Of a stretch of 20,321 nucleotides of DNA, positions 249-18,214 are shown piece by piece. The notes under the pieces are model-generated. The model ran no database searches. It worked only from the letters and a program-made list of their open reading frames with translations, and was not told the origin of the DNA. Source of the DNA: Candidatus Methylomirabilis sp. (GTDB taxonomy: Bacteria > Methylomirabilota > Methylomirabilia > Methylomirabilales > Methylomirabilaceae); assembly GCA_041498975.1 (NCBI GenBank), contig JBGQJI010000036.1:1-20321 (forward strand). Reading direction: 5' to 3'. Each line of letters begins with the position of its first letter. Position 1 is the first letter of the stretch. Made by a program: the position numbers and the translations under genes.

Positions 249-1217
249 TCAAGAAGCGACTTCGGCCCCTCGATTGTTACCCTTGGCCAGAAAAATTGCG
301 GCTTCGATTTTTCCCGATGTGGCTTTTTGTAGCTGGCGCTCCAGGGCATGAGCCTGTTGTTGATCCGCAGTCATGCCGTAGATTGCCGGTCCCCAGGAAC
401 TTTGCCCGATCCCTAATGCCCCGGCGCGTGCCAGCACTCTGGCTACCGCTGCCCCCTGCGGCGTGGCGAAGGTGCCACCCTGCACGGGTCGAAACCAGTT
501 CCCCACAATGCGCTGGATACTTGTGAGGGATCGCCCGAAGAGCGCGGGATCCCGCTCAAGCAAAGCTGGCAACATCTGGATCAGGATAATTCGGCTGATC
601 CTAGCGGCGCCACCCGCCCGGCGGCCCGCGATCCGACGGAACGCACGGTCCTCAGCGCGACCAGCGAGTCCGCGACCCAAATGGGGGATGGCCACGACGA
701 ACGTCCATTCCTTTGGAAAGGGGTGACGAACGATCGTTGGGGGGAGGGAACCGGGGCTGGAGTTCGCGCCCTGGGAACCTATCTTTCGTCCGGCGTCCAC
801 GATGAAGCCGCCCCGCTCGAAGGCACTCACCCCGACCCCAGACCGAGCCCCTCGTCCCATGACCGACGCTAGCTCCCGGACGCCGGCGTCGATTGAGAAG
901 AGCCGGGCCAGGGCCGTAGCGACGCTGAGGGCGAGCTGCGTCCCGGAGCCCAACCCGACATGGGAAGGGATGGTCTCTTTGATGGTGAGATGAACCCCTT
1001 GGGGAAGCTTGTAATGGCGAAGGAAGCGCAGGGCCAACGCCAGGGCGCGGCCGGCCTCGTCACCCGAGACCGAGACTCGGTTCGCCGGCGCCGCCTCGAG
1101 GAGAATCCTGGGTTCGTCGATCGCCAGTCCGATACTGCCGAACATCCGCCCCATCGACCCATCCAGATCGATGAAGCCGAAGTGCAGCCTTGCAGGGGCC
1201 TTGACCGTTACCCTCAT
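249..1217 (-). CDS. mptG: Beta-ribofuranosylaminobenzene 5'-phosphate (RFA-P) synthase, GHMP-kinase fold
   Basis: 322 aa with family motifs ARLHFG, IPSHVGLGSGTQ, GRGARSGVG, GGFIVDAG and GQSSWGP. It starts 2 nt after the DUF447 stop and sits among pterin genes. Confidence 0.9.
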   Translation of the reverse strand: MRVTVKAPARLHFGFIDLDGSMGRMFGSIGLAIDEPRILLEAAPANRVSVSGDEAGRALALALRFLRHYKLPQGVHLTIKETIPSHVGLGSGTQLALSVATALARLFSIDAGVRELASVMGRGARSGVGVSAFERGGFIVDAGRKIGSQGANSSPGSLPPTIVRHPFPKEWTFVVAIPHLGRGLAGRAEDRAFRRIAGRRAGGAARISRIILIQMLPALLERDPALFGRSLTSIQRIVGNWFRPVQGGTFATPQGAAVARVLARAGALGIGQSSWGPAIYGMTADQQQAHALERQLQKATSGKIEAAIFLAKGNNRGAEVAS

Positions 1218-1219
1218 CG

Positions 1220-1765
1220 CTACTGCCGCTCGACGTAGTTCTGGAGATAATGCATTGCCTTGGCTTCTTCCTCCCCCCCTGTCTTCTTCACAATTTCAGA
1301 AAAGCGGAGATACTCCTGGAGGATCCGTTCCACCCCGAGGAACCGGACTCTGGTGGCCAGGATGGCGGCCTCGATGATGGCGTTCTTCGCCCGGTTAAAC
1401 CCGACGAATTCCCGTAGGAACCCCTTTTTGACCACCCGACAGCGGAAGTCGGCGCGTTCATCATCGGTGTTGGCCTGCACGACCGAACACTCGAAATATG
1501 AGCAGGCGTCCTTCAGCACGAGGCCGCGGACCATCTCTGCCGGGAAGGCTGGAAATTCCGGGCTGGAGAGCGCTCCCTCGGCGAACAGGCGGACATTGTC
1601 GGTCAGATTGACGACGGCTTGCCCGGTCGCCAGAAGATTCCGATAGGTGGCCGATTCTCTGTAGGGACGGATGAGTATCTCCCCATCCCCGATCGTGACC
1701 CCCATCGGGGCGAAGTTCGCCTGGCCTTGTTCGTTCAGCGTTGTGACGATGGTCTCGATGATCAT
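1220..1765 (-). CDS. DUF447 family protein (split-barrel, FMN-binding-like), commonly linked to H4MPT biosynthesis genes
   Basis: 181 aa. Recalled family pattern ETIVTT..NFAPMG..RPY..S.TY.NL..AVVN.TD, plus C-terminal GFNRAKNAIIEAAILATR. Adjacent to mptG. Confidence 0.85.
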   Translation of the reverse strand: MIIETIVTTLNEQGQANFAPMGVTIGDGEILIRPYRESATYRNLLATGQAVVNLTDNVRLFAEGALSSPEFPAFPAEMVRGLVLKDACSYFECSVVQANTDDERADFRCRVVKKGFLREFVGFNRAKNAIIEAAILATRVRFLGVERILQEYLRFSEIVKKTGGEEEAKAMHYLQNYVERQ

Positions 1766-1770
1766 GGCGC

Positions 1771-1877
1771 TGGCGCCGTTCCAACGTATCCCGGCTCATC
1801 TCCGACAGTTGTCTTCCTAAGAACGATCGCCTTCTCTGGCCTCACTATTTCTTGTCCTAATAGTTGGAACGGCACTA
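1771..1877. repeat. Inverted-repeat-bounded ~107 bp segment, possible MITE remnant
   Basis: Perfect 11-bp inverted repeat GCCGTTCCAAC (1775-1785) / GTTGGAACGGC (1863-1873), extendable to 15 bp with two transitions. The interior is more AT-rich than the flanking genes. Confidence 0.5.
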
Positions 1878-2077
1878 ATATAAACGACAATTTTAAAGTT
1901 ACGTCGGGCGGGTGGCCGAGGCGGGGCGCCCGATCCGCCCGCAGCGGAAGGGCCCCACTGGGGGATGGGTGGAGTGAGGACGGATGGGGCTGGGTTCCCG
2001 GAGCCCGAAGGGATCGGGAGGGGAGGACAGGACCCGACCCTTTCCAACAAGTTTAGAGACGTTTGCATTAGTCCGCT

Positions 2078-3100
2078 TCAACTCCTGGGCGGTTTCACGA
2101 ATCCTCCATCAGGGAGGCCGGCCGCCCCCACCACAAGGCGACAGGGACCATCATCGACCTGTTCGATGACGCCGGACGCCACGATGCGATCCCCCCGATC
2201 CGCTGCCTGGCAGTAGAGTCCCTCGTACGACACCAGCTCCGTGATCGGCCAGTGTCCTCCCTCTCGGATTCTGACGTCGGCCAGGGTGTAGCAGGCCGGA
2301 AGGAAGATGCTGTCGGCGCCATCCGCCACGGTGGCCTCGATCGTGGCAACCCCGACGGACCTGTAACGATGCTGGCCATAGGTCTCCTGGATCTCATCGT
2401 CCCGCCGTGTGGGGTGAATGGAGACATACCGGTCCCGAAACTGGAAGTAATTCCAACGTCTGGCCTCCAGGTGTGCGACATCCTCCGGGGCGAGACCGAA
2501 GCGCCCGGCCGTCTCGGCCCTCCACCGGGTCAAGCGATTAGAGGCGACCGACTGGATCGCCCTTCCTTTCAGCACGGAAAGGGCGACCCGCACCCTTGCT
2601 GTGGCGTCTCGGCCATAGACCACCAGATCGATGTCGGAGAACGATGGGTCGTGGATCTTCAAGAGGATCGATCCGGTGATCCCGAACGCTTCCGGGCCTG
2701 GCCCGCCGGCGCCCACGAGGAGCGAGACGAGAGCTTCGACGTCCTTTTCCAGCGGGTCGGCAGGTGCAGCCAGGATCGCCTGCAATCGCTCCTCCGGCCG
2801 GTAGTAGGTCGTGACGGTCTCTCGGGGAACGAAGGAAAAGCTCAGATTCCGGACCGGGTCGAAGCTGATGTAACGGGGGTGGTGAGTCCTGAGGAATTCG
2901 AGCGTCTTGGCGACGTTCCGGACGTGGTAGTACTCCAGTTCCCTGCGAAAGTGGACCGTTCCCCTGGCCCACCGCCCGGCCTCGGCGGGTGTGTACTTGA
3001 GATAGGCGGTGTAGCGGTCCGGTGGATGGAGGTATCCGGCCAGGCAGAACAAGAACCCCTCGTTGGTCTCGACGAAATCGCGATCCTTCGGCTGCCTCAT
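2078..3100 (-). CDS. Predicted nucleotidyltransferase (Pol-beta-like), resembling archaeal COG1665
   Basis: 340 aa. GITGS-x10-SDIDLVVYG (GS..DxD) motif and N-terminal DRDFVETxEGxxF..YxHP..AYLKY pattern. Likely C-terminal OB-like beta domain. ATGA overlap with the upstream gene at 3097-3100. Confidence 0.8.
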   Translation of the reverse strand: MRQPKDRDFVETNEGFLFCLAGYLHPPDRYTAYLKYTPAEAGRWARGTVHFRRELEYYHVRNVAKTLEFLRTHHPRYISFDPVRNLSFSFVPRETVTTYYRPEERLQAILAAPADPLEKDVEALVSLLVGAGGPGPEAFGITGSILLKIHDPSFSDIDLVVYGRDATARVRVALSVLKGRAIQSVASNRLTRWRAETAGRFGLAPEDVAHLEARRWNYFQFRDRYVSIHPTRRDDEIQETYGQHRYRSVGVATIEATVADGADSIFLPACYTLADVRIREGGHWPITELVSYEGLYCQAADRGDRIVASGVIEQVDDGPCRLVVGAAGLPDGGFVKPPRS

Positions 3101-4050
3101 CGGTAGATCCAGTCAAGGGCCCGCTCAGCCACGTCCCGTAGGCCGAGGTGAGTGACAAGCGGAGCACATCGCCCCCCGGCGATCCCATCGGCCAGGATGG
3201 CGGCGCCGATCGCCGCCTCATACCCTTCGTCTTCCCTGGCCGCGATCTCGATCTGAAAGCGATGCTTGAGTCGGTCCCTGACCTCCACCTTCCGTCGTCC
3301 GGCCACGTGAATTGGCTTGAGCTCGTGGAAGGAAAGGAACATCAAGAGATCCTTCTCCAGCCCCTCCCAGAATGCGGCGTGGCCGTAGCCGCCGTACCGC
3401 ACATCGATGTCCCGCGCCCCTCCATGGTAGATCAGCTCTTTGGCGTTCCAGTCATACAGATAGGCCAGCTCGCCGTCGATGCTTCCCCGGCACTGCGGGC
3501 CGATCCCGCCGGCAGTTCCACCCAGGCCATCGACGATCTTGCCGCCTCGCACGGCCAGGATGGCCCTGAAAGCTTCTCCAACCTCAAGCACGACGAAATG
3601 AAGGTCCTCGAAAGGCGCCCCTTGCGCGTGGAGCCGGCTGATGAAGAATACGGCGGCGCACAGCTTATCCGAGGTCCCCATATCGGCGCGGTTCACCTTT
3701 CGGTGGATCGGCACGCTGGGCAGGAGCTTGACCGCGGGAATGCAGTAGGCGTTGAGGTGAGAGGAACGAAGCGTCAGGAGGAAGCGAGAAAGGCCGCGTT
3801 CGCTGGGCGCCTCCCGTCGAAGCGCGATCTCGAAGAGGTCGCGCTCATCGAGTTCCTGGACCCGTTTGAGCGGGATGCCGAATCCGGACGGTAGGACGAT
3901 CGGCAGGCCGGGATAGCGGCCCTCGATCTCCGTGATGAATGCGCGCACGTCTTCTGACGAGGTGAAGCCCCGCAATCCCGGCGCGCATCCCTCCTGGAGC
4001 AGCGCGGCTTTCCAGGAGCCGGTGCCGTAATCAACTCCCAGGGAGGCCAT
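3097..4050 (-). CDS. DUF1464 family protein (ASKHA/butyrate-kinase-like fold)
   Basis: 317 aa with GVDYGTGS phosphate-1 motif, PSGFGIP, IPAVKLLPSVPxHRKVNRxDMGTSDK and GGKIVDGLGGT. Overlaps both neighbouring genes. Confidence 0.8.
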   Translation of the reverse strand: MASLGVDYGTGSWKAALLQEGCAPGLRGFTSSEDVRAFITEIEGRYPGLPIVLPSGFGIPLKRVQELDERDLFEIALRREAPSERGLSRFLLTLRSSHLNAYCIPAVKLLPSVPIHRKVNRADMGTSDKLCAAVFFISRLHAQGAPFEDLHFVVLEVGEAFRAILAVRGGKIVDGLGGTAGGIGPQCRGSIDGELAYLYDWNAKELIYHGGARDIDVRYGGYGHAAFWEGLEKDLLMFLSFHELKPIHVAGRRKVEVRDRLKHRFQIEIAAREDEGYEAAIGAAILADGIAGGRCAPLVTHLGLRDVAERALDWIYR

Positions 4051-5374
4051 GGTCGAGATACCCCCATCGGAGCTCCTCTTCCTGGATGTACTTCTTCCCG
4101 AGCAGCATCGCCAGCCTGGCCTTCATCAACTCACGGCCGAGGTAAAAGGCATGGCCGATCGGCTCCGGGCCGAGGTGGGCCTTGATCTGGTCGAAGATCC
4201 GATGGATGTCGGTCTCCTTGATGAAGAGATCGTTATTGAAGACGTAGATGGCGGTCTGGTCGGCGAAGATCCGGAAGTTGCGGTCCGGGACCATCCGTTG
4301 CATCTCTCGAAGCTCCGCTTCAGGTGGACAATCGACCTTCCGGTCTTTGATCGTGAGCAGGCCGTCATCGATATCTTTCGGCAGCACGCCTCTCTGCCTG
4401 GCGTAGTACATCAATCGGCGGGCCAGATCCAGCTCACGGACCGACCCTCTGGCCCACGATGCCACCTCGGTCGTGAGGACATACCGGATCCCCAGCTCCG
4501 ACATGACCCCTGCCAGGAGGGCATTGATCCCGGTGCTGTCGGCGTCGGTCAGCTCGGTCACATTCCCCACGCCCATGAGGATCTCGGTGTCTGGGTAACG
4601 GCGCCTGGCCTCAGCGTAGCGTGAGAGCGATTCGGCAAGGCCGAAGGTGATCGGCGACAGGATGGGATCGATCAGGTATCGCCGGACACCCAGCCGCTCC
4701 ACTGCCTCGATGTTGGCGGCAAGGGAGTCCAGCCCCTTCCCGAAATCGGGAATGATCACCGGGGTGCACGAGAGGTCCGGAGCCAGATGGAGGTTCTGAG
4801 AATTGAGGCTTAGCAGGAACTCGGCGCCCGCCTTGTCGCCGGCGACGATCTCCCGCGCATCGAACGTATCGAGGCTGACGCGGAAGCCTTCGGACCTGAG
4901 CGTCGAGACGATCTCGCCCACGTTCGGGGCCGGTCGCTCCGGGGTGCAGCCGACGTCGATCACATCCGCGCCGCAGGCAACGTAGTATCGGGCCTTCCTC
5001 AGGATCACATCGACCGGCATGCTGGGGGCGTCATTGATCTCGGCCAGGATGGTCAGGTCGTGCCCTCCATACCCCTCCCGTTTCTTCTCGACGCCGAAGT
5101 AGTACGGCAGGTCGCGCAGGTCCTTCGGGCCCTTCTCGACCTTGACCCCCAGAGACTGTTCCAGCGCATTTGGTTCGACACGACAGAGCCCCGGGATCAT
5201 GAGCAGATCACAATCGGGGGCGGGGAGAGAACGAAGGATGAAGGGAGTGGTCATCAGGGCGGCCACGGTGATCTTGAGGGCAGCCACCTCGTAGTCGAAC
5301 TCGGCCTCCATCGCTCCGAGGGTCTCTTTCAGGGCCCGTTCGGCCAACTTGCCGGTGATGAAGAGGATCTTCAT
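4031..5374 (-). CDS. Dihydropteroate synthase-like pterin-binding protein (Orf20-type; DUF6513 N-terminus, DUF4346-like C-terminus)
   Basis: 447 aa with ILFITGKLAE, KGPKDLRDLP, AEINDAP, GADVIDVG, DPILSPI, MGVGNVTELTDADS and HAFYLGRELxKA..LGKxYxQEExLxWG. GGGAGG Shine-Dalgarno upstream. Confidence 0.87.
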   Translation of the reverse strand: MKILFITGKLAERALKETLGAMEAEFDYEVAALKITVAALMTTPFILRSLPAPDCDLLMIPGLCRVEPNALEQSLGVKVEKGPKDLRDLPYYFGVEKKREGYGGHDLTILAEINDAPSMPVDVILRKARYYVACGADVIDVGCTPERPAPNVGEIVSTLRSEGFRVSLDTFDAREIVAGDKAGAEFLLSLNSQNLHLAPDLSCTPVIIPDFGKGLDSLAANIEAVERLGVRRYLIDPILSPITFGLAESLSRYAEARRRYPDTEILMGVGNVTELTDADSTGINALLAGVMSELGIRYVLTTEVASWARGSVRELDLARRLMYYARQRGVLPKDIDDGLLTIKDRKVDCPPEAELREMQRMVPDRNFRIFADQTAIYVFNNDLFIKETDIHRIFDQIKAHLGPEPIGHAFYLGRELMKARLAMLLGKKYIQEEELRWGYLDHGLPGS

Positions 5375-5394
5375 GCGCCTCCCGCATCAGATGC

Positions 5395-6144
5395 TCAGAC
5401 CCAGAGGCCGCCGTGGACGTGGAGGACCGCTCCAGTCACGTAGCGTGCACGGTCCGAACCCAGGAAGCCGACCGCTTCGGCGATATCGTCCGGACTGCCA
5501 AGGCGGCCGAGCGGGATCATCCTCCCCCAGGCCTCTTTGTGCTCGTCGCGATACTGGCGATATGTCTCGGTTTCGATGAACCCGGGGTTCACGGCGTTGA
5601 CCCTGATGTTGAATGGCGCCTCGGACCTTGCCAGCGACTTGGTGAGCATAATCACGCCGGCCTTGGCGATGTAATACGCGGGTGCATCAAAAACCCCGAT
5701 GGGCGAGTATTCGACATTGAGGGCGCCGATATTGATGATGGCTCCGGTCCGACGGTTTCGCATGACCCGCAGCGCTGCCCTGCTGCAGTAAAAGACGCTG
5801 CTCAGGTTGCTGTCAAGCATCCGACGCCAGTCGTCATCCGTGGTCTCGAGCAGCGGCCTCGCGAGGAAAGGCCCGGCGTTGTTGACCAGGATGTCAAGCC
5901 GGTTGAAACGATGGACCGTTTCCTCGATGAGATGGGACGCGTCATTTGACGCGGAGACATCGGCTTTGATGGCCACTGCCTTTCCGGGCAGGGCGTCGAA
6001 CTCCCGGAGGGCGGATCGCGCCGTATCCTCGTCAGACCGGTAGTTCAGGACGATGTCACACCCATCTTGTGCGAGACGCCGGGCGATCGCCTTGCCGATC
6101 CCCTTGGTGCTCCCGGTGATCACGGCCACTCTCTGCCCTTCCAC
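5395..6144 (-). CDS. SDR family NAD(P)-dependent oxidoreductase (FabG-like fold)
   Basis: TGSTKGIG, NNAG, YxxxK (YYIAK) and NAVNPG motifs. Start placed at GTG 6144 behind GGGAGGGAG (6154-6162). The ORF is open to 6195/6201. Confidence 0.88.
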   Translation of the reverse strand: MEGQRVAVITGSTKGIGKAIARRLAQDGCDIVLNYRSDEDTARSALREFDALPGKAVAIKADVSASNDASHLIEETVHRFNRLDILVNNAGPFLARPLLETTDDDWRRMLDSNLSSVFYCSRAALRVMRNRRTGAIINIGALNVEYSPIGVFDAPAYYIAKAGVIMLTKSLARSEAPFNIRVNAVNPGFIETETYRQYRDEHKEAWGRMIPLGRLGSPDDIAEAVGFLGSDRARYVTGAVLHVHGGLWV

Positions 6145-6210
6145 TTGGCGGATCTCCCTCCCGGCGCTCTCGCTGACTTGGGACTGTGCCGGCATCTCCA
6201 CACGTGCTTC

Positions 6211-6495: not shown

Positions 6496-6554
6496 CCACC
6501 CAGCCAATTAGAGATTGTTGGTGATGACAGTGGTGTTGTGGCGACGAGAATTGC

Positions 6555-6589
6555 TTGACTTCTTCCTGCCTGGATGTAGAATGAGCGCC
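6555..6589 (+). promoter_or_regulatory. Sigma70-type promoter of the tRNA gene
   Basis: TTGACT (6555-6560), 16-bp spacer, TAGAAT (6577-6582), then GC-rich discriminator GAGCGCC. This layout is typical of stable-RNA promoters. Confidence 0.75.
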
Positions 6590-6598
6590 ACAAAGGTT

Positions 6599-6674
6599 GG
6601 GCGGTTAGCTCAGTCGGTAGAGCGCCGTCTTCACACGGCGGAGGTCACTGGTTCGATCCCAGTACCGCCCACCA
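6599..6674 (+). tRNA. tRNA-Val, anticodon CAC
   Basis: 76-nt cloverleaf: acceptor GGGCGGT/ACCGCCC, D arm GCTC/GAGC, anticodon stem CCGTC/GGCGG with loop TTCACAC (CAC at 6632-6634), T arm ACTGG-TTCGATC-CCAGT, encoded CCA. Confidence 0.97.
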
Positions 6675-6816
6675 CGCATTATCTTAACCAGACCACTACA
6701 TCCAACCAGGCGTGCGGGCCGCGATCTGGTTACGGAGGACGAGCTCATACAGGGCGAGCGCCCGCAGAAATCTCGGCGATACGACGCACGACAGGGTAGA
6801 AACGAAGGAGATGCCG

Positions 6817-7215
6817 ATGAACATAGTAAAGACCTTATCCATTCTACTGCTGCTTGTTCTCGTAGGACCTTCTCTTGCTCTTTCCACAAGTCTTCCAGAC
6901 TACCAACAAGCACAAAAGAAAGAGTTCAAATGGGCATGTGACGCGAATGCAACGAGGATTGAAACTAATCTCTACCGCGCAAAGGATTATTATGTCTCGA
7001 TATCAGGTACAGAAGCGGGCGCTACCTTTCTGAGCGTGTACTATGTTGCCGAAGGCAGGGCGCAGTTTCTGGCGAAACTGATAGGCTCTCCTGACTTTGT
7101 GGAACTTCCAAGGGAAGCATGGCAAGAAAAGATAAAATCGGATATGAGCCCGAACTACTTCAAGCGGATCCGAAATCTGGAAAATGATTGCATATGTCTG
7201 ATCGGATGTGACTGA
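6817..7215 (+). CDS. Hypothetical secreted protein, 132 aa
   Basis: AAGGAG (6805-6810) lies 6 nt before ATG 6817. Sec-type signal peptide MNIVKTLSILLLLVLVGPSLA and C-terminal CxCxxxC. Hand count of 46% GC over 6841-7200. Confidence 0.7.
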   Translation: MNIVKTLSILLLLVLVGPSLALSTSLPDYQQAQKKEFKWACDANATRIETNLYRAKDYYVSISGTEAGATFLSVYYVAEGRAQFLAKLIGSPDFVELPREAWQEKIKSDMSPNYFKRIRNLENDCICLIGCD

Positions 7216-8425: not shown

Positions 8426-9772
8426 ATGGCCTCCCGCAGCCATCGGCTCCGGCAGGATGACAAACGATACGTCTGGCACCCGTTCACCCAGATGCGGGAC
8501 TGGCTTCAGGAGTGCCACCCGATCATCGAGCGGGGTGAGGGGAGCTACCTGATCGACGTCGATGGCCGCCGGTACCTGGACGGCGTCTCGTCGCTCTGGG
8601 TCACTGTTCACGGCCATCGCAAAGCAGCCATTGATCAGGCGATCAGAACCCAGCTCTCCAAGATCGCTCACACCACCTTCCTCGGCCTTTCCCACCCCAC
8701 GGCGATCGAACTGTCCAAGGCGCTGATCCGGATCGCCCCCGATGGTCTCTCCAAGGTCTTCTACTCCGATAACGGCGCGACGGCCGTCGAGATCGCCCTG
8801 AAGATGGCGTTTCAGTACTGGCAGCAGCGTGCTGGGGCGTTTCGCCGGAAGACCCGGTTCATCGCCCTGGAAGAGGCGTACCACGGCGATACGGTGGGCG
8901 CGGTGAGCGTCGGTGGTATCGAACTGTTCCACCAGCTCTACCGGCCGCTCCTCTTCCCGACCTGGAAGATCCCATCGCCGTACCGGGCGCCATGGGACCG
9001 CGCGCGACGCCCCGACCCGGTCGCGCGGCTCGAGGCCCTCCTCAGGCGACACCACGATCGCGTGGCTGCCTTGGTCATGGAGCCATTGATGCAGGCGGCA
9101 GCGGGGATGCTCCCCTCGCCGCCAGGCTTCTTGAAGGCTGTTCGGTCGCTCTGCTCTGAATACAACGTCCTGCTGATCCTCGACGAGGTTGCGACCGGAT
9201 TCGGTCGGACGGGGACGATGTTTGCCTGCGAGCAGGAAGGGGTGACGCCTGATCTGCTCTGTCTGGCAAAAGGGATCACCGGTGGCTACCTTCCGCTTGC
9301 CGCAACGCTGACGACGCAGGAGATCTTCGACGGCTTCTGCGCCCCCTTTGGCGAGAAGAAGGCCTTCTTTCACGGTCATACGTATACCGCCAACCCGCTG
9401 GCCTGCGCCGCCGCTTTGGCCAACCTCCGCTGTTTTCAGCGCGAGCGGACACTGAAGCTGCTCCAACCTAAGATCGCGTTGCTCCGCAAGGAGCTGGAAA
9501 CGCTTCGTTCGCTGTCGCATGTGGGCGACATCCGGCGGGTGGGGTTCATGGTCGGGATCGAACTGATGCAGGACCGGGAGCGAGGAGAGCCGTACCCATA
9601 CGAATCGAAGATGGGGATTCGGACGATCCTGGAATCCAGGCGGCGTGGGCTGATCATCAGGCCGCTGGGGAATGTGATTGTCCTGATGCCGCCGCTTTCG
9701 ATCGCTAGCGCCGATCTCACCCGGATGGTTCGGACTGTGGGGGACTCGATCGCGGCGGCAACCGGAAGATGA
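8426..9772 (+). CDS. bioA: 7,8-diaminopelargonate aminotransferase (class III PLP)
   Basis: WHPFTQM, SSLWVTVHGH, YHGDT, DEVATGFGRTG, AKGITGGY (PLP lysine) and HGHTYTANP motifs. Lies between bioB and bioD. Confidence 0.95.
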   Translation: MASRSHRLRQDDKRYVWHPFTQMRDWLQECHPIIERGEGSYLIDVDGRRYLDGVSSLWVTVHGHRKAAIDQAIRTQLSKIAHTTFLGLSHPTAIELSKALIRIAPDGLSKVFYSDNGATAVEIALKMAFQYWQQRAGAFRRKTRFIALEEAYHGDTVGAVSVGGIELFHQLYRPLLFPTWKIPSPYRAPWDRARRPDPVARLEALLRRHHDRVAALVMEPLMQAAAGMLPSPPGFLKAVRSLCSEYNVLLILDEVATGFGRTGTMFACEQEGVTPDLLCLAKGITGGYLPLAATLTTQEIFDGFCAPFGEKKAFFHGHTYTANPLACAAALANLRCFQRERTLKLLQPKIALLRKELETLRSLSHVGDIRRVGFMVGIELMQDRERGEPYPYESKMGIRTILESRRRGLIIRPLGNVIVLMPPLSIASADLTRMVRTVGDSIAAATGR

Positions 9773-9825
9773 GGGTCGGCGTCATGCCTGATAGATAGCA
9801 TGCAGTGGGGGCTGCCCGCGACGAG

Positions 9826-9921
9826 CCCATCATCCGGGCCTTCTCCCCTGAGGGGAGCCTTCGACAAGCGCTCGGCTGAGCCTTGTCGAAGCCTCAGGCG
9901 AGCGAAGGAGAGGTTGAGGGG
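9826..9921. repeat. Triple-nested repeat: palindrome containing a 23-nt element containing an inverted 24-nt element
   Basis: Removing 9869-9892 gives CCTTCGACAAGCTCAGGCGAGCG. Removing 9858-9904 restores the perfect stem CCTTCTCCCC-TGA-GGGGAGAAGG. Confidence 0.85.
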
Positions 9922-9975
9922 TCAGGTGGTGGTCGATTTATTGAAGGGTCACAACACTCACCGAGCAACAGGCCC

Positions 9976-10023
9976 GCTTCGCCGGGGCTCAGGCTGCGCA
10001 CTGAGCCTGCCGAAGTGACAGGC
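9976..10023. repeat. Double-nested 24+24 nt element at the bioD start
   Basis: GCTTCGCCGGGGCTCAG|GACAGGC is split by 9993-10016, whose reverse complement is ACTTCGGCAGGCTCAGTGCGCAGC. Confidence 0.8.
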
Positions 10024-10743
10024 CTGCTGGTCACCGGGACTGACACCGGGGTCGGCAAAACGCTGGTCACCGCCGCGCTCGCCGCGGCGCTGCGCGTGCG
10101 CGGGATCGACGTCGGTGTTATGAAGCCGATCGAGACCGGCTGCCCCACCCGGCGAGGTCGCCTGCTGCCGCGGGATGCCTTGACGCTTCGAGAGGCATCA
10201 GGATCGCGCGACGGGCTTGACCTGATCAACCCGTATCGCTTCCGGGAGGCGCTGGCGCCGATGGTTGCGGCGCAGCGAGCCGGCCGCCGCATCGATATCG
10301 GAGTGTTGAAAGAACGGTTCGGTCGTCTGTCCAGTCGGCATGCTGCGGTCCTGGTCGAGGGGGCTGGGGGTTTGCTGGTTCCGATCACGGAAGACGCGTC
10401 GTTCCTCGATCTATCGGCCATCCTGCGGCTGCCCCTGCTCGTGGTGATAGGATCAAGACTCGGCGCGCTGAACCACGCCAGGCTGACTGTGGAGGCGGCT
10501 CTGCATGCCCGCCAGCCGGTGGCCGGGGTGATCCTGAACCAGCCAAGCCCAGACCGGTCGCTCGCCCGAAAGACGAATCTGTCGGCCCTCCGGCAGCTCT
10601 TGCCGGTCCCTGTCCTCGGCGAGATCCCGTACGTCGCGGGCCCTGGAGATCAGCCTTCCTGGCGCCATCCCCGCATCCAGCGAATCCTCGCCCTGTCCCT
10701 TAGGCGGCTTCTCCCGGAGGTTCTCGGAGAGGATGAGGCATAG
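10015..10743 (+). CDS. bioD: Dethiobiotin synthase
   Basis: VTGTDTGVGKT P-loop, MKPIETG, VEGAGGLLVP and LGALNH motifs. The start is uncertain: GTG 10015 was chosen, and the frame is open from TTG 9883 through repeat-derived sequence. Confidence 0.93.
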   Translation: MTGLLVTGTDTGVGKTLVTAALAAALRVRGIDVGVMKPIETGCPTRRGRLLPRDALTLREASGSRDGLDLINPYRFREALAPMVAAQRAGRRIDIGVLKERFGRLSSRHAAVLVEGAGGLLVPITEDASFLDLSAILRLPLLVVIGSRLGALNHARLTVEAALHARQPVAGVILNQPSPDRSLARKTNLSALRQLLPVPVLGEIPYVAGPGDQPSWRHPRIQRILALSLRRLLPEVLGEDEA

Positions 10744-11390
10744 TGAAGGAGCGTCGGCCCGCGATCTTCGGACTGTTCCTCCTCCTGCTCACTTCGTGCG
10801 CTGTGCCGGGGCTGCGGTCGAGGTCCTGGGAGGGGGTGTCCGGCGAAGTCGGCCTGGCATCCTGGTACGGTGTGCCGTATCACGGTCGCCGGACCAGCAG
10901 TGGTGAGGTCTACGATATGTACCAACTGACGGCAGCCCACCGCGAAATCCCGCTCGGGAGCTGGGTCGAAGTGACGAATCTCACCAATACCCGTTCCCTC
11001 ACTGTCAGGGTCAATGATCGCGGGCCCTTCGTGGAGGGGAGGATCATTGACTTGTCGTATGCCGCAGCCTCTCTGCTCGGGGTCACAGGGCCGGGGGTGG
11101 TGCCCGTCCGGGTTCGGCTCGCTCAAGCGCCTCAGGGCGCATTCGGCCCGTCGCGCTTTCTCGTTCAGGTGGCCTCGTTCACCGCAGAATCGAGCGCTCA
11201 GACGCTGAAAGGGGAGCTGGAACGAACGTTTCGCGGAGTTCATCTCATGAAGGCCATGGTCGGTGGAGAGGTGTACTATCGGGTCCGGATCGGGAGCTTT
11301 TCATCCCGCGCCGACGCCCAGGCAACAGCGGAGCAGCTCGCCGGGCTCGGGTATCGGGTGCTGATCATGGGGGCTGAAGAGCGGCTATGA
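10743..11390 (+). CDS. rlpA: Septal ring lytic transglycosylase RlpA family lipoprotein (DPBB + SPOR)
   Basis: Lipobox LTSC, GLASWYG, TAAH, VRVNDRGPF and RIIDLSYAAA motifs. C-terminal SPOR-like VQVASF..YRVRIG. Confidence 0.92.
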   Translation: MKERRPAIFGLFLLLLTSCAVPGLRSRSWEGVSGEVGLASWYGVPYHGRRTSSGEVYDMYQLTAAHREIPLGSWVEVTNLTNTRSLTVRVNDRGPFVEGRIIDLSYAAASLLGVTGPGVVPVRVRLAQAPQGAFGPSRFLVQVASFTAESSAQTLKGELERTFRGVHLMKAMVGGEVYYRVRIGSFSSRADAQATAEQLAGLGYRVLIMGAEERL

Positions 11391-11416
11391 GATGCCCGAC
11401 AACAAGCGGAAAAGGC

Positions 11417-11446
11417 TTGACACTTCCCCCCCGATCCTGATACATT
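11417..11446 (+). promoter_or_regulatory. Sigma70-type promoter upstream of the M23 gene
   Basis: TTGACA (11417-11422), 18-bp spacer, extended -10 TGaTACATT (11438-11446). Confidence 0.7.
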
Positions 11447-11543
11447 CCCCCGACACTATCTTCACTGGCGTTGTGACCCGGACCGACTCCTGGGTCGGTT
11501 TTCGTCCAGCGCACCTGTCCTCCGCAGGAAAGGATATGACGAG

Positions 11544-12485
11544 ATGGCGAAGAAATTCTACACGGTCCTTGTCCTTCCAGACGCCAGCTCCCAGATCCGA
11601 AGGTTTCACATCGCCAAGTCCCTCCTCGGCGGTCTTGCCGCCGCCGCGAGCATGATTTTCGTCGCCTTCCTGTTCTTCATCTATCAGGCGGTCAGCCTTA
11701 ATGGCCACATGTTGGAGTTGCGACAACTCAGGGTGGCGGCAAATCAGCAAGCCAGCCTCACGCAGAAGGTTGACCGTCTCGAGAATGAGTTGATCCGGCT
11801 CCGGGAATTCGACCTTCGTTTGCGGACGGCAGCCGGTCTGGAGACGAGGGAGGGGGAAGGTTCGTTCTTCGGCGTTGGCGGGTCGGATACGTTGAGTTCC
11901 GGGGCCCTGATGGTCGCGGCCATCGCTCACCAGACGCCATCTCCTGGCCCTCTGACCAAGGAGCTCGATCGTCTCAGCCAGGAGATGAGCGACCGCAGCA
12001 AAAGCTTCCAGGAGCTGGTCGATCAACTTCAGGCGAAACGCAGCGTGTTGGCCTCCACCCCCACCATCTGGCCTGTCAAAGGATGGCTGACGGCCGGGTT
12101 CGGGTATCGGCGCTCCCCCTTCACGGGGCTCCGACAGATGCATGAAGGGGTCGATATCTCGAATACCGTCGGGACACCGGTCATCGCCCCTGCCGACGGT
12201 GTCATCTCATACACGGGCCCGCTTGGCGGCTTCGGCAACGTGATCTCCATCGACCACGGCCACAGGATCGGCACCTTCTATGGGCACTTACTCCAGCAAA
12301 AGGTGTCCCAGGGACAGCGGGTGAGAAGGGGAGACATCATCGCCCTCGTGGGAACAACAGGCCGCGCGACCGGGCCTCACCTCCATTATGAGATCCAGGT
12401 GAACGGGGCGCCGGTTGATCCAAGCAGGTATGTGATCGATCCGGAAGCGGTGAAATTCCTTGGGGACGGCGAAACGGCCGAGTAG
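11544..12485 (+). CDS. M23 family metallopeptidase (N-terminal TM helix, coiled coil)
   Basis: HEGVD (HxxxD) and GPHLHYE (HxH) zinc motifs, TPTIWPVKGW and YGHL. AAGGA Shine-Dalgarno. Confidence 0.92.
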   Translation: MAKKFYTVLVLPDASSQIRRFHIAKSLLGGLAAAASMIFVAFLFFIYQAVSLNGHMLELRQLRVAANQQASLTQKVDRLENELIRLREFDLRLRTAAGLETREGEGSFFGVGGSDTLSSGALMVAAIAHQTPSPGPLTKELDRLSQEMSDRSKSFQELVDQLQAKRSVLASTPTIWPVKGWLTAGFGYRRSPFTGLRQMHEGVDISNTVGTPVIAPADGVISYTGPLGGFGNVISIDHGHRIGTFYGHLLQQKVSQGQRVRRGDIIALVGTTGRATGPHLHYEIQVNGAPVDPSRYVIDPEAVKFLGDGETAE

Positions 12486-12530
12486 CAGAGCAGCGCTCGT
12501 CTCCGTGTGTCGGGGATAGTCGGGCCAACG

Positions 12531-12566
12531 CCCCCGGAGGATCGGCTCCTCCGGGGGTTTTTCTTT
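12531..12566 (+). terminator. Rho-independent terminator after the M23 gene
   Basis: 11-bp perfect stem CCCCCGGAGGA/TCCTCCGGGGG with a 5-nt loop, followed by TTTTTCTTT. Confidence 0.9.
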
Positions 12567-12608
12567 CTGCCCTGCCGAATCCAGCCATCCACGGGTCGGC
12601 CTTTGCGG

Positions 12609-12637
12609 TTGAAGCGCGTAGGGTTCTGTGCTAGTAT
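12609..12637 (+). promoter_or_regulatory. Sigma70-type promoter for secA
   Basis: TTGAAG (12609-12614), 17-bp spacer, extended -10 TGcTAGTAT. Lies between the terminator and the secA Shine-Dalgarno. Confidence 0.6.
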
Positions 12638-12678
12638 CCCTTTGAAATCGCTGCACATTGGGAGGAGAGAACCCGGAA

Positions 12679-15504
12679 ATGTTTATGAAACTGGTATCCA
12701 AGGTTGTCGGAACCAAGAACGAGCGGGAGCTGAAGCGGATCCAACCGATGGTCGCTGCGACCAACGAGCTGGAACCCGCGATGAGGGCGCTCTCCGACGA
12801 CGACCTTCGCAAGAAGACGGCCGAGTTCAAGGAGCGGATCGCCCAGGGGGCAGCCCTCGACGGTCTCCTTGTCGAGGCCTTCGCCGTCGCTCGGGAGGCA
12901 GGTCGGCGCGTCCTCGACATGCGCCACTTCGATGTCCAACTCCTTGGCGGCATCGTCCTGCACGAAGGGAAGATCGCCGAGATGGCCACCGGCGAGGGCA
13001 AAACGCTGGTGGCGACCCTGCCCGTCTACCTGAATGCGCTGGAAGGGAACGGCGTCCACGTCGTCACGGTCAACGACTACCTGGCCAAGCGAGATAGCCA
13101 GTGGATGGGTGGGATCTACCGGTTCCTGGGGCTCTCCGTCGGCCTGATCCAGCACGACATGGACGACGCGGGCCGCAAGGTCGCGTATGGCGCCGACGTC
13201 ACCTACGGGACGAATAACGAATACGGTTTTGACTATCTGCGGGATAATATGAAGTTCGCCGCTGCGGACTTCGTGCAGCGGGACCTGCATTATGCCATCG
13301 TCGATGAGGTGGACTCGATCCTGATCGATGAAGCCCGAACGCCACTCATCATCTCCGGACCGGCGGAGGAATCGACCGAGAAGTACTACCAGATCGACCG
13401 GATCATCCCCCGGCTGAAGCGGGGCGCCACGATCGCGGGCGGGAAGTTGTACGAAGCAGAGGCGCAGGGCTCCGGCGATTACGTCGTGGACGAGAAGGCG
13501 AAGTCGGTTGCCCTCAGTGAAAGCGGCGTGGCCAAGGTAGAGGGCCTCCTGGGGGTGAAGAATCTTTACGACCCGGCCAACATGGACCTTGTCCACCACG
13601 TCCAGCAAGGGCTGAAGGCCCATGTCCTGTTCAGGCGGGACGTGGACTATGTGGTCAAGGATGGCGAGGTGGTCATCGTCGATGAGTTCACCGGGCGGAT
13701 GATGCCCGGGAGGCGCTGGAGCGACGGGCTCCATCAGGCGGTGGAGGCCAAAGAGCGGGTCAAAATCGAGCGGGAGAACCAGACACTGGCCACCATCACC
13801 TTCCAGAACTACTTCCGGATGTATAAGAAGCTGGCTGGAATGACCGGGACCGCCGATACCGAGGCGGCCGAGTTCGCCCAGATCTACAATCTGGATGTGA
13901 TGGTGATCCCGACCAACCGACACCTGATCCGGACCAACTACCCCGACGTGGTCTATAAGACAGAAAGGGAGAAGTACGACGCTGTTGTGGAGGAGATCGC
14001 CGAGCTGCACGGGATCGGGCGGCCGGTGCTGGTCGGGACCACCTCGATCGAGAAGAATGAAAAGCTCTCGGCCTTGCTGAAGCGAAAGGGCATCCCTCAC
14101 CAGGTCCTGAACGCCAAGCACCACGAGCGGGAGGCGGAGATCGTGGCCCAAGCCGGGCGCTTCAAGGCGCTCACCATCTCCACCAATATGGCGGGCCGCG
14201 GGACCGATATCCTCCTGGGCGGCAACCCGAAGTTCCTGGCGGCCGAGATGGTTCGGCGGGGCGACGTGCCGGAGGATGGGGACGATCCTCAGGGATTCGC
14301 CAGGACGCTGGAGGGAGTCCGGCAGATGCAGCGATACGGCCTGCTCGACCTCTCGGTGGACGTGGAGGAGTACGGCGCGGCGCTCGCCGTGGTTCAAAAG
14401 CAAACCGAGGCCGAGCACCAGCAGGTGGTGGAGCTGGGCGGCCTGCACATCATCGCGACTGAGCGTCACGAGGCTCGGCGTATCGACAACCAGCTCCGAG
14501 GACGTGCCGGCCGACAGGGCGACCCCGGCTCGTCCCGGTTCTATCTCTCGCTCGAGGACGATCTCCTCCGCCTGTTCGGCTCCGACCGGATCAGCAAGAT
14601 CATGGAGAGGCTGGGCATGGAGGAAGGGGAGCCGATCGAGCACAACATGGTCACCCGGGCGATCGAGACGGCCCAGAAGCGCGTAGAGGCGCACAACTTC
14701 GAGATCCGCAAGCACCTCCTGGAATACGATGATGTGATGAACAGGCAGCGCCAGATCATCTACGGCGAACGGTGCAAGATCCTGGAAGGGGAGAATCTGG
14801 AGGACACCCTTGCCGAGATGCGCAGTGAGGTGATCGACGGATTGCTGGCCTTGTACACCAATGAGGAGACCTATCCGGAGGAATGGGACCTCGTGGCCCT
14901 TGCCGAGGCGGTCAAGCGCCAGTTCGACCTGGAGATCTCCTGGCCGGCTGAGGAGGTGCCATCGCTGACCCAGGCCCTGTTACGGGATAGCATCGAGGAG
15001 CGGGCGCTCAAGGCCTATGAAGAGCGGGAAGCCAAGCTGGGTCCGGAGATGCTCCGGTATCTGGAACGGATGATCATGTTGCAGGTAGTGGACTCGCAGT
15101 GGAAGGACCACCTCCTGGCCATGGATCATCTGAATGAGGGGATCGGGCTTCGCGGGTACGGTCAGAAAGATCCCCTCATCGAGTACAAACGTGAAGGATT
15201 CGAGATGTTCGAGGCGATGGTCGAGCGGGTCAAGCAGCAGACCGTCGAGTACCTCTACAGAGTTCAAGTTGCCCCCGCCGAATCCTTTCCCTTTGACGAG
15301 GCGGGGGTCGCATCCCCGGCTGGTGCCGGGGATGGCGACCTTCTCAGCCGGCCCCGACCGAGGTCACAGCCCAAACCCTCAGAGCGCTCGCTGCGCCCGA
15401 TGGCTGCGGCGGCTCCCATCAAGGTGGCTGGGAAGAAGATCGGCCGCAACGAGCCCTGTCCCTGCGGCAGTGGCAGGAAATACAAGAAGTGCTGCGGCGC
15501 TTGA
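12679..15504 (+). CDS. secA: Preprotein translocase ATPase SecA
   Basis: MATGEGKT Walker [42 protein letters not shown] and C-terminal [24 protein letters not shown] (12661-12667) favours ATG 12679. Confidence 0.98.
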
Positions 15505-15771
15505 GCCTCGAGGCAGGGGTCACATGGAAGGGTCCGGGTGACCTCAGCTCGAACTGGCATTGATTCTCTTCCCGAGGTCCGATCGATTTCAGCCAGTGCT
15601 GGTGTTTGACCCCCAACGCCCCGACTCTCTTCCCCGGGTGGCAGAGGATTGAGCTGAATGGGGTCCTTGCGGCAGGGTCGCCTTGCCGCCCGATGGGGGC
15701 GGAGGCTCCCGCATGTCCAATCCGAGAACGGGTCTTTGAGGGGAGATTCTTCGTAGGAAAGTGGAGGAATC

Positions 15772-16935
15772 ATGATGATGCGCGGGGTGTCCGTCATAGG
15801 GATCGGGTGCACGAGGTTCGGGAAGCGGAATGGCATCGGCATCATCGACCTGGCGGTCCAGGCGTGTCGGGAGGCGCTGGATGACGCGGGGGTCCCGAAT
15901 GAGCGAGTGCAGGCGTTTTACCTCGGCAACTTCGTCTCCGAGGCGCTGGTCCACCAGGGGTCGCTGGCGTCGATGGTTGCGCACCGGCTTGGCCTCAGGG
16001 TAATCCCCTGCACGAAGGTGGAAGGGGCATGTGCCTCGTCCGGCATCGCGTTCCGTCATGGTTTCCTCATGATCGCATCAGGCCTCTGTGATATCGTCCT
16101 GACCGCAGGCGCGGAAAAGATGACCTCGTCCGAGACGGCGACCGTGACACAGGCGTTGGCCTCGGCCGGCGACGCCGAGACGGAAATGCGGCTTGGTCTC
16201 ACCTTTCCGGGGACCTTCGGGGTCATCATGCGGCGTCACATGTACCAGTACGGGACGACGCGCGAGCAGGTGGCAATGGTCTCGGTGAAGAACCGGAGGA
16301 ACGGCAGTCTCAATCCCAAGGCCCACTTTCAGAAGCCGATCAGCCTGGACGAAGTCCTGGAATCGCGGCTGATCTGCGATCCTCTCCGGCTTTATGACTG
16401 CCCGCCGATCAGCGACGGAGCGGCAGCCGCCGTCCTGTGCGCAGCCGACATCGCCGGTGAGTTCAGCAGCCGGCCGGTCGAGATCATCGGCTCGGGGCAT
16501 GCCATGGGTCCCGGGACCCTGTTCGAGATGAGCGACCTGACCACCTTCGAAGCCACGGTGAGCGCCGCTCGGGAGGCCTATCGAATGGCTGGCGTCTCCC
16601 CACGCGACATCGATGTGGCGGAGGTTCACGATTGCTTCAGCATCGCCGAGATCGCGGCCACCGAAGACCTGCGATTCGTTGAGAAGGGGAAGGGCGGCCG
16701 CGCTGTCGAGGAAGGGCTGACCGCGATGAACGGGCCGATCCCGGTCAACCCGAGCGGAGGGTTGCTCTCCAAAGGGCATCCGGTGGGCGCGACCGGCCTC
16801 GCCCAGATCTATGATATCGTCCAACAGCTTCGGGGCGAGGCGATGAACCAGGTCGGAGGCGCGGAAATCGGCCTGGCCCACAACCTGGGCGGGACCGGTG
16901 CGATCAGCACCGTTCATATCCTGAGGCGGCGCTGA
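15772..16935 (+). CDS. SCP-x/archaeal-type thiolase (acetyl-CoA acetyltransferase-like)
   Basis: EGACASSG (active Cys), EVHDCF, KGHPVGATG and HNLGG motifs. GGAGG at 15763-15767. The start may be 15772, 15775 or 15778. Confidence 0.92.
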   Translation: MMMRGVSVIGIGCTRFGKRNGIGIIDLAVQACREALDDAGVPNERVQAFYLGNFVSEALVHQGSLASMVAHRLGLRVIPCTKVEGACASSGIAFRHGFLMIASGLCDIVLTAGAEKMTSSETATVTQALASAGDAETEMRLGLTFPGTFGVIMRRHMYQYGTTREQVAMVSVKNRRNGSLNPKAHFQKPISLDEVLESRLICDPLRLYDCPPISDGAAAAVLCAADIAGEFSSRPVEIIGSGHAMGPGTLFEMSDLTTFEATVSAAREAYRMAGVSPRDIDVAEVHDCFSIAEIAATEDLRFVEKGKGGRAVEEGLTAMNGPIPVNPSGGLLSKGHPVGATGLAQIYDIVQQLRGEAMNQVGGAEIGLAHNLGGTGAISTVHILRRR

Positions 16936-16937
16936 GC

Positions 16938-17261
16938 ATGGCCTCGTTCGGCGCGTTCCAATGCGACACCTGCAAGAGCCTGTCCGCGCCTCCTCACAAC
17001 TGGTGTGGTCGCTGCGGGGCCAGCGCGCTGCGGTCGGTGACGCTCTCTGGTCGAGGCGCGCTTCTTTCCTTCACCACTATTCGGATCCCGCCCGCCAAGT
17101 TCAAGGGGCAGGAGCCGTACGATATCGGGGTCATCGATCTCGAGGAGGGGTTGCGGGTGACGGCGCGGCTCAAAGTACCGGTGAGGAGACAGGCCGTGAT
17201 CGGCGACCCCGTCGTATTTGAAGGATTGGTGGAGCAGGGGCCGGTCTTTCGATTGGTCTGA
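16938..17261 (+). CDS. DUF35 family Zn-ribbon/OB-fold protein
   Basis: CDTC..CGRC zinc ribbon, GALLSFTTI and PY..GVIDLEEGLRV. Starts 2 nt after the thiolase, which is the canonical partner of this family. Confidence 0.9.
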   Translation: MASFGAFQCDTCKSLSAPPHNWCGRCGASALRSVTLSGRGALLSFTTIRIPPAKFKGQEPYDIGVIDLEEGLRVTARLKVPVRRQAVIGDPVVFEGLVEQGPVFRLV

Positions 17262-17282
17262 GGGCGGGATAGGGACAGGGCG

Positions 17283-18098: not shown

Positions 18099-18102
18099 AA
18101 TA

Positions 18103-18208
18103 AGGTTCCACGTTCGAGGTTCCACGTTCCAGGTTCCGAGTACCACGTTGGGGTAATGGGGGGCGTTGAGTCTTCTTGAAAACCCGGAACCTGGGGCCAG
18201 GAACCTCC
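18103..18208. repeat. Two inverted arrays of heptamer repeats between convergent genes
   Basis: AGGTTCC/ACGTTCG/AGGTTCC/ACGTTCC/AGGTTCC/GAGTACC/ACGTTGG (18103-18151), and the complementary-sense AACCCGG/AACCTGG/GGCCAGG/AACCTCC (18181-18208). Confidence 0.8.
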
Positions 18209-18214
18209 CACGGG

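Follow-up and report, generated by a model that had tools for sequence, protein, structure and literature searches.

Tetrahydromethanopterin (H4MPT) is a carrier of one-carbon (C1) units in methanogenesis, in the anaerobic oxidation of methane and in methylotrophic bacteria. On the way to this cofactor, MptG makes beta-ribofuranosylaminobenzene 5'-phosphate (RFA-P), and at the end of the archaeal form, a ribose 5-phosphate is joined to hydroxyglutarate through a diester bond; to our knowledge, no enzymes have yet been assigned to the later steps of side-chain synthesis. In other systems, CitG and MdcB make a 5''-triphosphoribosyl compound, which CitX and MdcG, both of the nucleotidyltransferase type, transfer to a hydroxyl with loss of pyrophosphate, and we take Orf7 of the H4MPT gene islands to be a CitG homologue. 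The bacterial islands are cited here from excerpts of the papers that describe them. In Methylosinus they include orf19-orf20-afpA-orf21-orf22 and pcbD-mptG (PMC3615186). M. extorquens uses dephospho-H4MPT (PMC6193120, PMC8141765); its methylofuran glutamate ligases MyfA and MyfB, which together build the polyglutamate chain of methylofuran, correspond to OrfY and Orf5, and Orf22, Orf21 and Orf9 are homologous to MfnB, MfnE and MfnF, respectively (PMC8141765). NC10 bacteria, too, carry H4MPT/methanofuran genes (PMC5020050). Here, we analyzed a 20,321-nucleotide contig from the genome of a methane-oxidizing Candidatus Methylomirabilis bacterium (JBGQJI010000036.1, the whole of which we call the window), in which six genes lie co-oriented on the minus strand at 249-6201. 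In the direction of reading, they encode a short-chain dehydrogenase/reductase (SDR), an Orf20-type protein resembling dihydropteroate synthase (DHPS-like), a DUF1464 protein, a three-domain nucleotidyltransferase (NTase), a DUF447 protein and MptG.

We consider it highly likely that this stretch is the cofactor-biosynthesis arm of the Methylomirabilis H4MPT/methylofuran C1 island, with the DUF1464 and NTase genes as accessory members. The island is of a known bacterial kind, its composition is new, and the retained NTase/DUF1464 pair and the SDR are its interesting parts. On this reading, DUF1464 and the NTase form an accessory pair of ancestral origin, which was kept in this lineage and deleted in most congeners.

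The Methylomirabilis cluster and its island

Taken from the SDR to mptG, the junctions between the six genes comprise, in order, a gap of 20 nt, overlaps of 20 and 4 bp and gaps of 312 and 2 nt, and the cluster may be read as a single minus-strand unit. The original prediction, made from the sequence alone, had described six co-oriented genes in this order and with these junctions, both of which the open reading frame (ORF) listing returned; of the extent that it gave, 249 to 6144, the start stands and the end moves to 6201; position 6144 marks an alternative GTG start in frame with the SDR, at its codon 20. The family names that it had assigned (SDR, DHPS-like, DUF1464, DUF447 and MptG) were also recovered by our profile searches of the six proteins. 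MptG (249-1217; 322 aa, GHMP-kinase fold) scored 198.2 bits against TIGR00144 (cut-off 113.5) and 226 bits against the archaeal equivalog NF040726, below the cut-off of 328 for that model. The DUF447 protein (1220-1765; 181 aa), with a flavin-reductase-like split barrel, matched DUF447_N at 93 bits and DUF447_C at 53 bits, both above the Pfam cut-offs, with weak Flavin_Reduct and PNPOx matches besides, and its gene lies directly upstream of mptG in all of the relatives seen. The DHPS-like protein (4031-5374; 447 aa) matched DUF6513 (74 bits) and PterinBD-DUF4346 (34 bits) above the Pfam cut-offs, Pterin_bind weakly and TIGR00284 at 217 bits, below the cut-off of 257; it shares 80-94% identity with relatives in Methylomirabilis/Methylomirabilota and 56-58% with those in Anaerolineae, and its ratio of nonsynonymous to synonymous substitution rates (dN/dS) is 0.06-0.12. 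We take the DUF447 and DHPS-like genes to be orf19 and orf20.

Together, mptG, DUF447 (orf19) and orf20 are the ordinary bacterial H4MPT set. The original prediction had counted orf20 and DUF447 as extra genes pointing to a modified pterin; both are ordinary members of bacterial islands in the excerpted PMC3615186, and therefore they are not evidence for such a pterin. Neither DUF1464 nor the NTase corresponds to Orf21 or Orf22, which the excerpted PMC8141765 names as the MfnE and MfnB homologues. All related Methylomirabilis/Methylomirabilota loci that extend over the stretch repeat the order SDR-orf20 ... DUF447-mptG, and the gene order of the cluster is more than chance. Conservation thus holds for this framework, but DUF1464 and the NTase are missing or broken in most congeners. 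Across the accessory part, sediment-metagenome contigs from elsewhere cover 2058-4973 and 2263-4504 unbroken.

The window is one contig (C36) of a 2.68-Mb genome bin in 241 contigs that is 84.9% complete. A second contig of the same bin, C62, carries fae, mtdB, a second SDR gene, fhcB, fhcA and an fhcD that is cut by the contig end; Fae scored 240 bits, and Mpt_N, FTR and FhcA/B-like proteins were also matched there. In a complete congener, fhcA-fhcD-fhcC-mch-orf5-orf7 are followed, after 6.7 kb, by a convergent mptG-DUF447-orf20-SDR and then by bioB, and a second congener has only 0.9 kb between the end of orf7 and mptG. This arrangement suggests that C62 and C36 are probably neighbors and that the assembly probably misses about 4 kb before base 1 of the window, containing the remainder of fhcD as well as fhcC, mch, orf5 and orf7. 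The lack of any H4MPT-using enzyme, which had been remarked upon, is hence true of the window, but it is an effect of the contig break, and a search of the genome for such enzymes recovered fae, mtdB, fhcB, fhcA and fhcD on C62. The Mch, DHFR and CitG models had no match in the 85%-complete window genome; the CitG-like orf7, although not found there, is present in 18 of the 19 congeners, adjoining mptG where the regions were fetched. With matches to mptG, orf20 and DUF447 in the cluster and fae, mtdB and fhc elsewhere in the genome, the interpretation as a methanopterin-type cofactor cluster is upheld. Its bacterial host, which the original prediction had pointed out, is no surprise: an H4MPT cluster as such is expected in NC10, which the excerpts of PMC5020050 name as carriers of H4MPT/methanofuran genes. 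Two further genes of the bin are worth recording. The second SDR (C62 4459-5190, minus strand), between mtdB and fhcB, has an atypical glycine motif and could equally be a candidate cofactor-related reductase, and a second FhcB/FwdB-like gene on contig C1 (11309-12547) is 46% identical to the fhcB of C62.

The SDR of the cluster (5395-6201; 268 aa from a GTG, with alternative starts at 6195, an ATG, and 6144, a GTG) is a classical member of its family that matched adh_short_C2 at 211 bits and has the TGxxxGIG and YxxxK motifs. In all related Methylomirabilis loci that cover that side, the gene immediately upstream of orf20 is this SDR. The same slot is held by an Afp/DmrB-type flavoprotein in Chloroflexota and Bathyarchaeia, and likewise in Methylosinus in the excerpted PMC3615186. 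The DHFR_1 model matched none of the 20 genus genomes, and the matches of an Anaerolineae flavoprotein query in the genus were all weak, with E values no better than 5e-7 and positions within ORFs of some 410 aa, and included no DmrB-like gene. Position and the absence of the known reductases make the SDR a candidate dihydromethanopterin/dihydropteridine reductase, and if this is true, SDR-type enzymes would add to the known dihydromethanopterin reductases a third type, unrelated to the other two, and the final step of the pathway would have three solutions. A Rokubacteria island (locus 9000-19008) places its SDR similarly; on its minus strand, it reads an amino-acid-kinase-family gene, a 319-aa protein of no family, the SDR, a pterin-4a-carbinolamine dehydratase, orf20, mtdB, DUF1464, a MyfA-type ATP-grasp gene and a 383-aa protein of no family, with the NTase on the other strand. 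The 319-aa and 383-aa genes may be further island members.

The NTase family, DUF1464 and a possible side-chain role

The NTase (2078-3100, minus strand; 340 aa) has no Pfam or NCBIfam family, its score against PF01909 (NTP_transf_2) being 14.3 bits against a cut-off of 21. The same model matches all 15 aligned family members, mostly below the cut-off (best E 5.4e-6), and the nucleotidyltransferase motif GITGS...SDIDLVVYG is invariant in the family alignments, with the window copy keeping all of the family-invariant residues. AlphaFold models, with a mean confidence (pLDDT) of 90.4 for the whole protein and 93.3 for residues 1-240, divide it into an N-terminal beta-barrel (about 1-102), a Pol-beta-type core (about 112-240) and a C-terminal OB fold (about 245-340). 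By motif and modeled fold, the protein belongs to the Pol-beta nucleotidyltransferase superfamily. Sequence searches of the PDB with the NTase and with DUF1464 returned nothing meaningful.

Relatives of the NTase were recovered from a genome collection, in which 504 of 602 pattern matches proved to encode relatives; the 80 best loci were retained (43 archaeal and 37 bacterial; here and below, group assignments of loci and genomes follow the record titles). The archaeal loci come from Bathyarchaeia, Nitrososphaeria, Thermoproteota, Asgard groups and others, and the bacterial ones from Rokubacteria/Methylomirabilota, Chloroflexota and Desulfobacteraceae. Neighborhoods were scanned by tblastn at E 1e-6 or better with island proteins from the window genome and one Anaerolineales locus. 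At least one H4MPT/methanofuran island gene was found within 9 kb in 47 of the 55 NTase loci of at least 12 kb, and none in the other 8. Two NTase paralogues occur in 45 of the 80 loci, and orf7 lies no more than 1.5 kb from an NTase copy in 15 of them. In Anaerolineae, the order is fhcB-A-D-C, mch, orf5, (orf7), NTase-a, NTase-b; in seven Chloroflexia loci, it is flavoprotein, orf20, NTase-b, DUF447, mptG; and a Bathyarchaeota locus reads NTase, NTase, orf7, DUF447, flavoprotein, DUF1464, a 6-pyruvoyltetrahydropterin synthase (PTPS) gene, mptG, orf20. A FastTree phylogeny of 123 copies and that of the window, midpoint rooted, resolved two old paralogue clades, each with archaea and bacteria. 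The window NTase falls in clade b, beside a Rokubacteria copy and then those of Chloroflexota and Desulfobacteraceae, and its grouping with Rokubacteria points to vertical descent within the phylum rather than to recent import from archaea. DUF1464, NTase and DUF447 with 57-64% identity to those of the window also occur on a 1.6-kb contig whose record names a Nitrososphaera bin; because this contig clusters in the tree with the Methylomirabilota copies, it is probably bacterial DNA that was misbinned.

The NTase family accompanies MptG in methanogens. Among 20 methanogen genomes, sampled via an mcrA primer pattern, 18 carry an NTase homologue that covers at least 268 of the 343 profile positions and is near full length in most, and the same 18 carry MptG above its cut-off, whereas Methanomassiliicoccus and Methanofastidiosum have neither; the NTase therefore tracks MptG in all 20 (18/18 MptG-positive, 0/2 MptG-negative). 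The methanogen copies match no Pfam or NCBIfam family beyond NTP_transf_2, and an attempt to assign them to clade a or b failed, as their hidden Markov model scores were similar. In 5 of 10 fetched methanogen regions, a PTPS-like gene or a gene for an MptA-type GTP cyclohydrolase lies within 1.5 kb of the NTase: the former at about 1.3 kb in Methanothermobacter, Methanobacterium and Methanobrevibacter genomes, and the latter at about 0.5 kb in two Methanolobus genomes. In bacteria, we surveyed 46 genomes that carry Fae (15 Proteobacteria, 12 Planctomycetota, 10 Actinomycetota, 3 Acidobacteriota, 2 Gemmatimonadales, 2 Rokubacteria and 2 others), of which three matched the NTase profile: a Rokubacteria genome (strongly), a Planctomycetota genome (E 1.9e-27) and an unclassified one (E 4.8e-12). 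None of the 15 Proteobacteria did so, and none of them has DUF1464. The archaeal flavor that the original prediction had seen in the cluster is therefore borne out by the NTase in 18 of 18 MptG-positive methanogens, and its claim of genes beyond the proteobacterial set is borne out by the NTase and DUF1464.

The DUF1464 protein (3097-4050, minus strand; 317 aa) matched PF07318 at 220 bits, above the cut-off and over profile positions 1-325 of 327. From its Pfam clan, we presume that it has an ASKHA (actin/sugar-kinase-like) ATPase fold, and its N-terminal GVDYGTGSWK resembles the phosphate-1 motif (DxGxGxxK-like). Judged from these sequence features, it probably acts with ATP on a cofactor intermediate. 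It is present in 16 of the 46 Fae-carrying genomes, in H4MPT islands of several bacterial phyla: all 10 Actinomycetota, 2 of 3 Acidobacteriota, both Gemmatimonadales and both Rokubacteria, as against none of the 15 Proteobacteria, 12 Planctomycetota or 2 others. Only 1 of the 20 methanogens has it, as a weak match. The distributions of DUF1464 and the NTase thus differ, and the two probably have separate roles. Two further ideas about DUF1464 were rejected. It is not a stand-in for TIGR03123 (hydantoinase-like, linked to H4MPT-dependent C1 transfer), which occurs in 55 of 56 genomes regardless, and the apparent fusions in Actinomycetota (frames of 595-676 aa) are not fusions, the domain starting at residue 249 and the upstream part overlapping mtdB in another frame.

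What the cluster would make can be proposed gene by gene. From the RFA-P supplied by MptG, Orf20 would join RFA-P to the pterin pyrophosphate, the flavin-barrel DUF447 protein would work on a later intermediate in a flavin-dependent step, and the SDR, to judge from its position and from the lack of DmrA and DmrB in the genus, would reduce the dihydro-cofactor to H4MPT. For the NTase, we tentatively put forward, as a real possibility that stops short of being probable, that it acts downstream of the CitG-like Orf7 in building the distal side chain. Two routes can be envisaged: a transfer like that of CitX and MdcG, by which a triphosphoribosyl intermediate would pass to an alcohol and pyrophosphate would be lost, or nucleotidylation of the 5''-phosphate. 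Either would lead to a phosphodiester-linked distal side chain (hydroxyglutarate in methanogens) of the kind that proteobacterial dephospho-H4MPT lacks, so that the window strain would make full-length H4MPT and its NTase-less congeners the dephospho form. An altered cofactor side chain is plausible, and the distribution of the NTase favors it. Among Creative Commons articles in PMC and preprints in bioRxiv, we found no paper that connects methanopterin biosynthesis with a nucleotidyltransferase, DUF1464 or DUF447, and none that deals with the NTase family. The proposal in its entirety, in which the NTase family is the missing distal-side-chain enzyme that decides between full and dephospho-H4MPT, the genus is losing it and the SDR is a third type of reductase, is possible but doubtful. 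If it were true, the NTase-positive and NTase-negative sister populations of Methylomirabilis would constitute a natural knockout series. As it stands, the family offers a concrete candidate for the distal side chain, one that tracks MptG in methanogens, sits in cofactor islands of both domains and is missing from the sampled Proteobacteria.

Counterevidence and alternative explanations

A number of our observations weigh against these proposals, and several of them feed alternative explanations. The genome bin is about 85% complete, so absences in this bin alone mean little. The best NCBIfam and PDB matches of the SDR are FabG-like, and it scored below the pteridine-reductase cut-offs (201.9 against 325 bits for NF012208, TmpR, and 182.6 against 288 for PRK09135). 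The NTase is missing from all 10 Actinomycetota and from 11 of the 12 Planctomycetota with Fae. Further, CitX/MdcG is absent among the five Pfam families listed, at E values up to 5, for 15 NTase members.

Most congeners, moreover, lack the accessory genes or carry broken copies of them; any contribution that the two make is therefore dispensable, and the loss of the NTase shows that it is not needed for the pathway to run. Across 20 genus genomes, the window genome included and 8 of them of high quality, the NTase is full length only in that of the window and in none of the 8; as remnants, three genomes retain its last ~90 residues and one its first 30. A full-length DUF1464 is found in the window genome and one other; the gene is split by a frameshift in a third and reduced to its first ~80 residues in the three genomes that have the NTase tail. 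Counted as arrangements rather than loci, as some loci may be the same records, four states retain traces: both genes intact (the window), DUF1464 alone, a frameshifted DUF1464 with an NTase stub and a DUF1464(1-79)::NTase(250-340) chimera left by one ~1.5-kb deletion in three genomes. In a fifth state, with neither gene, orf20 runs straight into DUF447. One sediment run contains, besides the intact form, a deletion variant in which 2314 is joined to 3813. The 312-nt spacer (1766-2077) next to the NTase is the sole long gap in the cluster because two dispersed repeats (about 1769-1878 and 1874-2072) fill it; they have 37 further blastn matches on other contigs of the genome, and they look like intergenic repeats of the miniature inverted-repeat transposable element (MITE) or repetitive extragenic palindromic (REP) kind. 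Metagenome contig depth is 136-677 at 1761-1980, as against about 8-18 alongside, and contigs break there.

One explanation of this pattern is that the locus is an ordinary dephospho-H4MPT cluster with two decaying passengers and that its product is the same as in congeners without DUF1464 and the NTase. The absence of both genes from 14 of the 19 congeners and their breakage in several others, the deletion variant within the same sediment community and the repeats inserted beside the NTase are all in its favor. Yet both frames are intact, DUF1464 has a dN/dS of 0.18 against the one intact congener copy (0.10-0.22 for the neighboring genes), the NTase retains every invariant residue, full-length NTase proteins of 82-87% identity occur in other metagenomes and both genes are tied into the operon by the 4-bp and 20-bp overlaps, and we hence regard this explanation as unlikely. 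The remnants in several congeners indicate that the DUF1464-NTase pair was already present in the genus ancestor.

The NTase, and perhaps DUF1464 too, could alternatively serve methanofuran or methylofuran, for example in the elaboration or attachment of the side chain. The commonest NTase neighbor is in fact orf5, which encodes a MyfB-type ATP-grasp protein (MyfB being the methylofuran glutamate ligase in M. extorquens, in the excerpted PMC8141765) and lies no more than 1.5 kb from the NTase in 22 of the 80 loci; fhcC and fhcD are also frequent neighbors, and DUF1464 adjoins the MyfA-type ATP-grasp gene in Rokubacteria. The methanogens that lack MptG and the NTase alike fit a methanofuran role equally well, and their pattern cannot separate H4MPT from methanofuran. 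Nevertheless, the NTase stands between orf20 and DUF447-mptG in the window and in the seven Chloroflexia loci, the methanogen copies lie beside the MptA-type GTP cyclohydrolase or PTPS-like pterin genes and an NTase paralogue most often adjoins the CitG-like orf7 rather than MfnB/E/F homologues, all of which makes a methanofuran role distinctly unlikely.

The structural comparisons raise another possibility, that the NTase is an RNA- or nucleic-acid-directed enzyme (in tailing or modification) that merely travels with C1 genes. The best matches of its core are, at modest Z values, RNA- and DNA-directed transferases, and a Sm-like barrel and an OB fold on either side of such a core are typical nucleic-acid binders. 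Specifically, the core (112-240) matched TUT7 (Z 7.7, root-mean-square deviation 2.9 over 86 residues) and Pol X (Z 7.7), with the CCA-adding enzyme also among the best matches, the N-terminal barrel weakly matched Sm-like proteins (Z 4.8) and the OB fold matched RPA (Z 7.9) and SSB (Z 7.8), but all of these values are below 8, a range common for the comparison tool. A Foldseek search of the PDB with the NTase model gave nothing at E 0.001 or better and no match over the whole length. Since a nucleic-acid enzyme would also leave the tight, repeated embedding in cofactor islands of two domains, and the agreement with MptG in methanogens, hard to explain, we regard this possibility as very improbable. 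Least probable of all is a recent horizontal import of an archaeal cassette into the bacterial chromosome, for which the mostly archaeal protein-atlas clusters nearest the NTase and a DUF1464 match in Sulfolobus only, among 14 control genomes, might be adduced, but against which stand the even GC content (0.60-0.64) across the cluster and its flanks, the position of the NTase in the tree and the ancestral age of the pair within the genus.

The surroundings of the cluster are bacterial, as the original prediction had stated on the strength of secA, rlpA and the bio genes; our profile searches agree, identifying bioB, bioA, bioD, rlpA, an M23 peptidase gene and secA. Just upstream of the SDR start is a terminator-like hairpin (minus strand, 6292-6278), and between the cluster and bioB lies a tRNA-Val (CAC) gene at 6599-6674 on the plus strand, preceded by two sigma-70-like promoter matches (6524-6582). 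This tRNA alone was found by the Rfam search, which detected no riboswitch or other RNA inside the cluster, and a promoter and terminator scan found no minus-strand site of either kind there. A 167-aa ORF of no Pfam family (6712-7215, plus strand) stands upstream of bioB and is 74% identical to one at the same place in one congener. Downstream of secA, at 15772-20297, are genes for a thiolase with a ChsH2-type OB-fold protein, a carbon-nitrogen hydrolase of the nitrilase family and a tungsten/molybdenum-type aldehyde:ferredoxin oxidoreductase, which are unrelated to the cofactor cluster.

Comparison with described systems

The 340-aa protein resembles the Pol-beta nucleotidyltransferases of PF01909 in its G[GS]...D.D motif and palm fold, and it differs from them in scoring below the Pfam cut-off and in a three-domain architecture that is unmatched over its whole length. 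The closest functional likeness that we can suggest is to the pairs CitG/CitX and MdcB/MdcG, in that the CitG-family orf7 and a Pol-beta-type NTase recur side by side and orf7 lies just beyond mptG in congeners. This likeness would be functional only, however: the NTase described here has an additional N-terminal barrel and OB domain, no CitX or MdcG model was among the Pfam matches listed for its family, and its acceptor would be a small molecule rather than an acyl carrier protein.

Among the reductases, DmrA is DHFR-like, and AfpA, DmrB and DmrX are flavoproteins; the SDR is of an unrelated fold family, yet it holds the slot of the flavoprotein beside orf20. Considered as a whole, the locus shares with the bacterial H4MPT/methylofuran islands an adjacent mptG, DUF447 and orf20, together with fae, mtdB and fhc in the same genome and, in congeners, in the same island. 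It departs from them in two respects. First, an SDR stands where afpA or dmrB stands elsewhere, in a genus that has no DmrA or DmrB homologue. Second, DUF1464 and the NTase, both absent from the sampled Proteobacteria, are inserted between orf20 and orf19.

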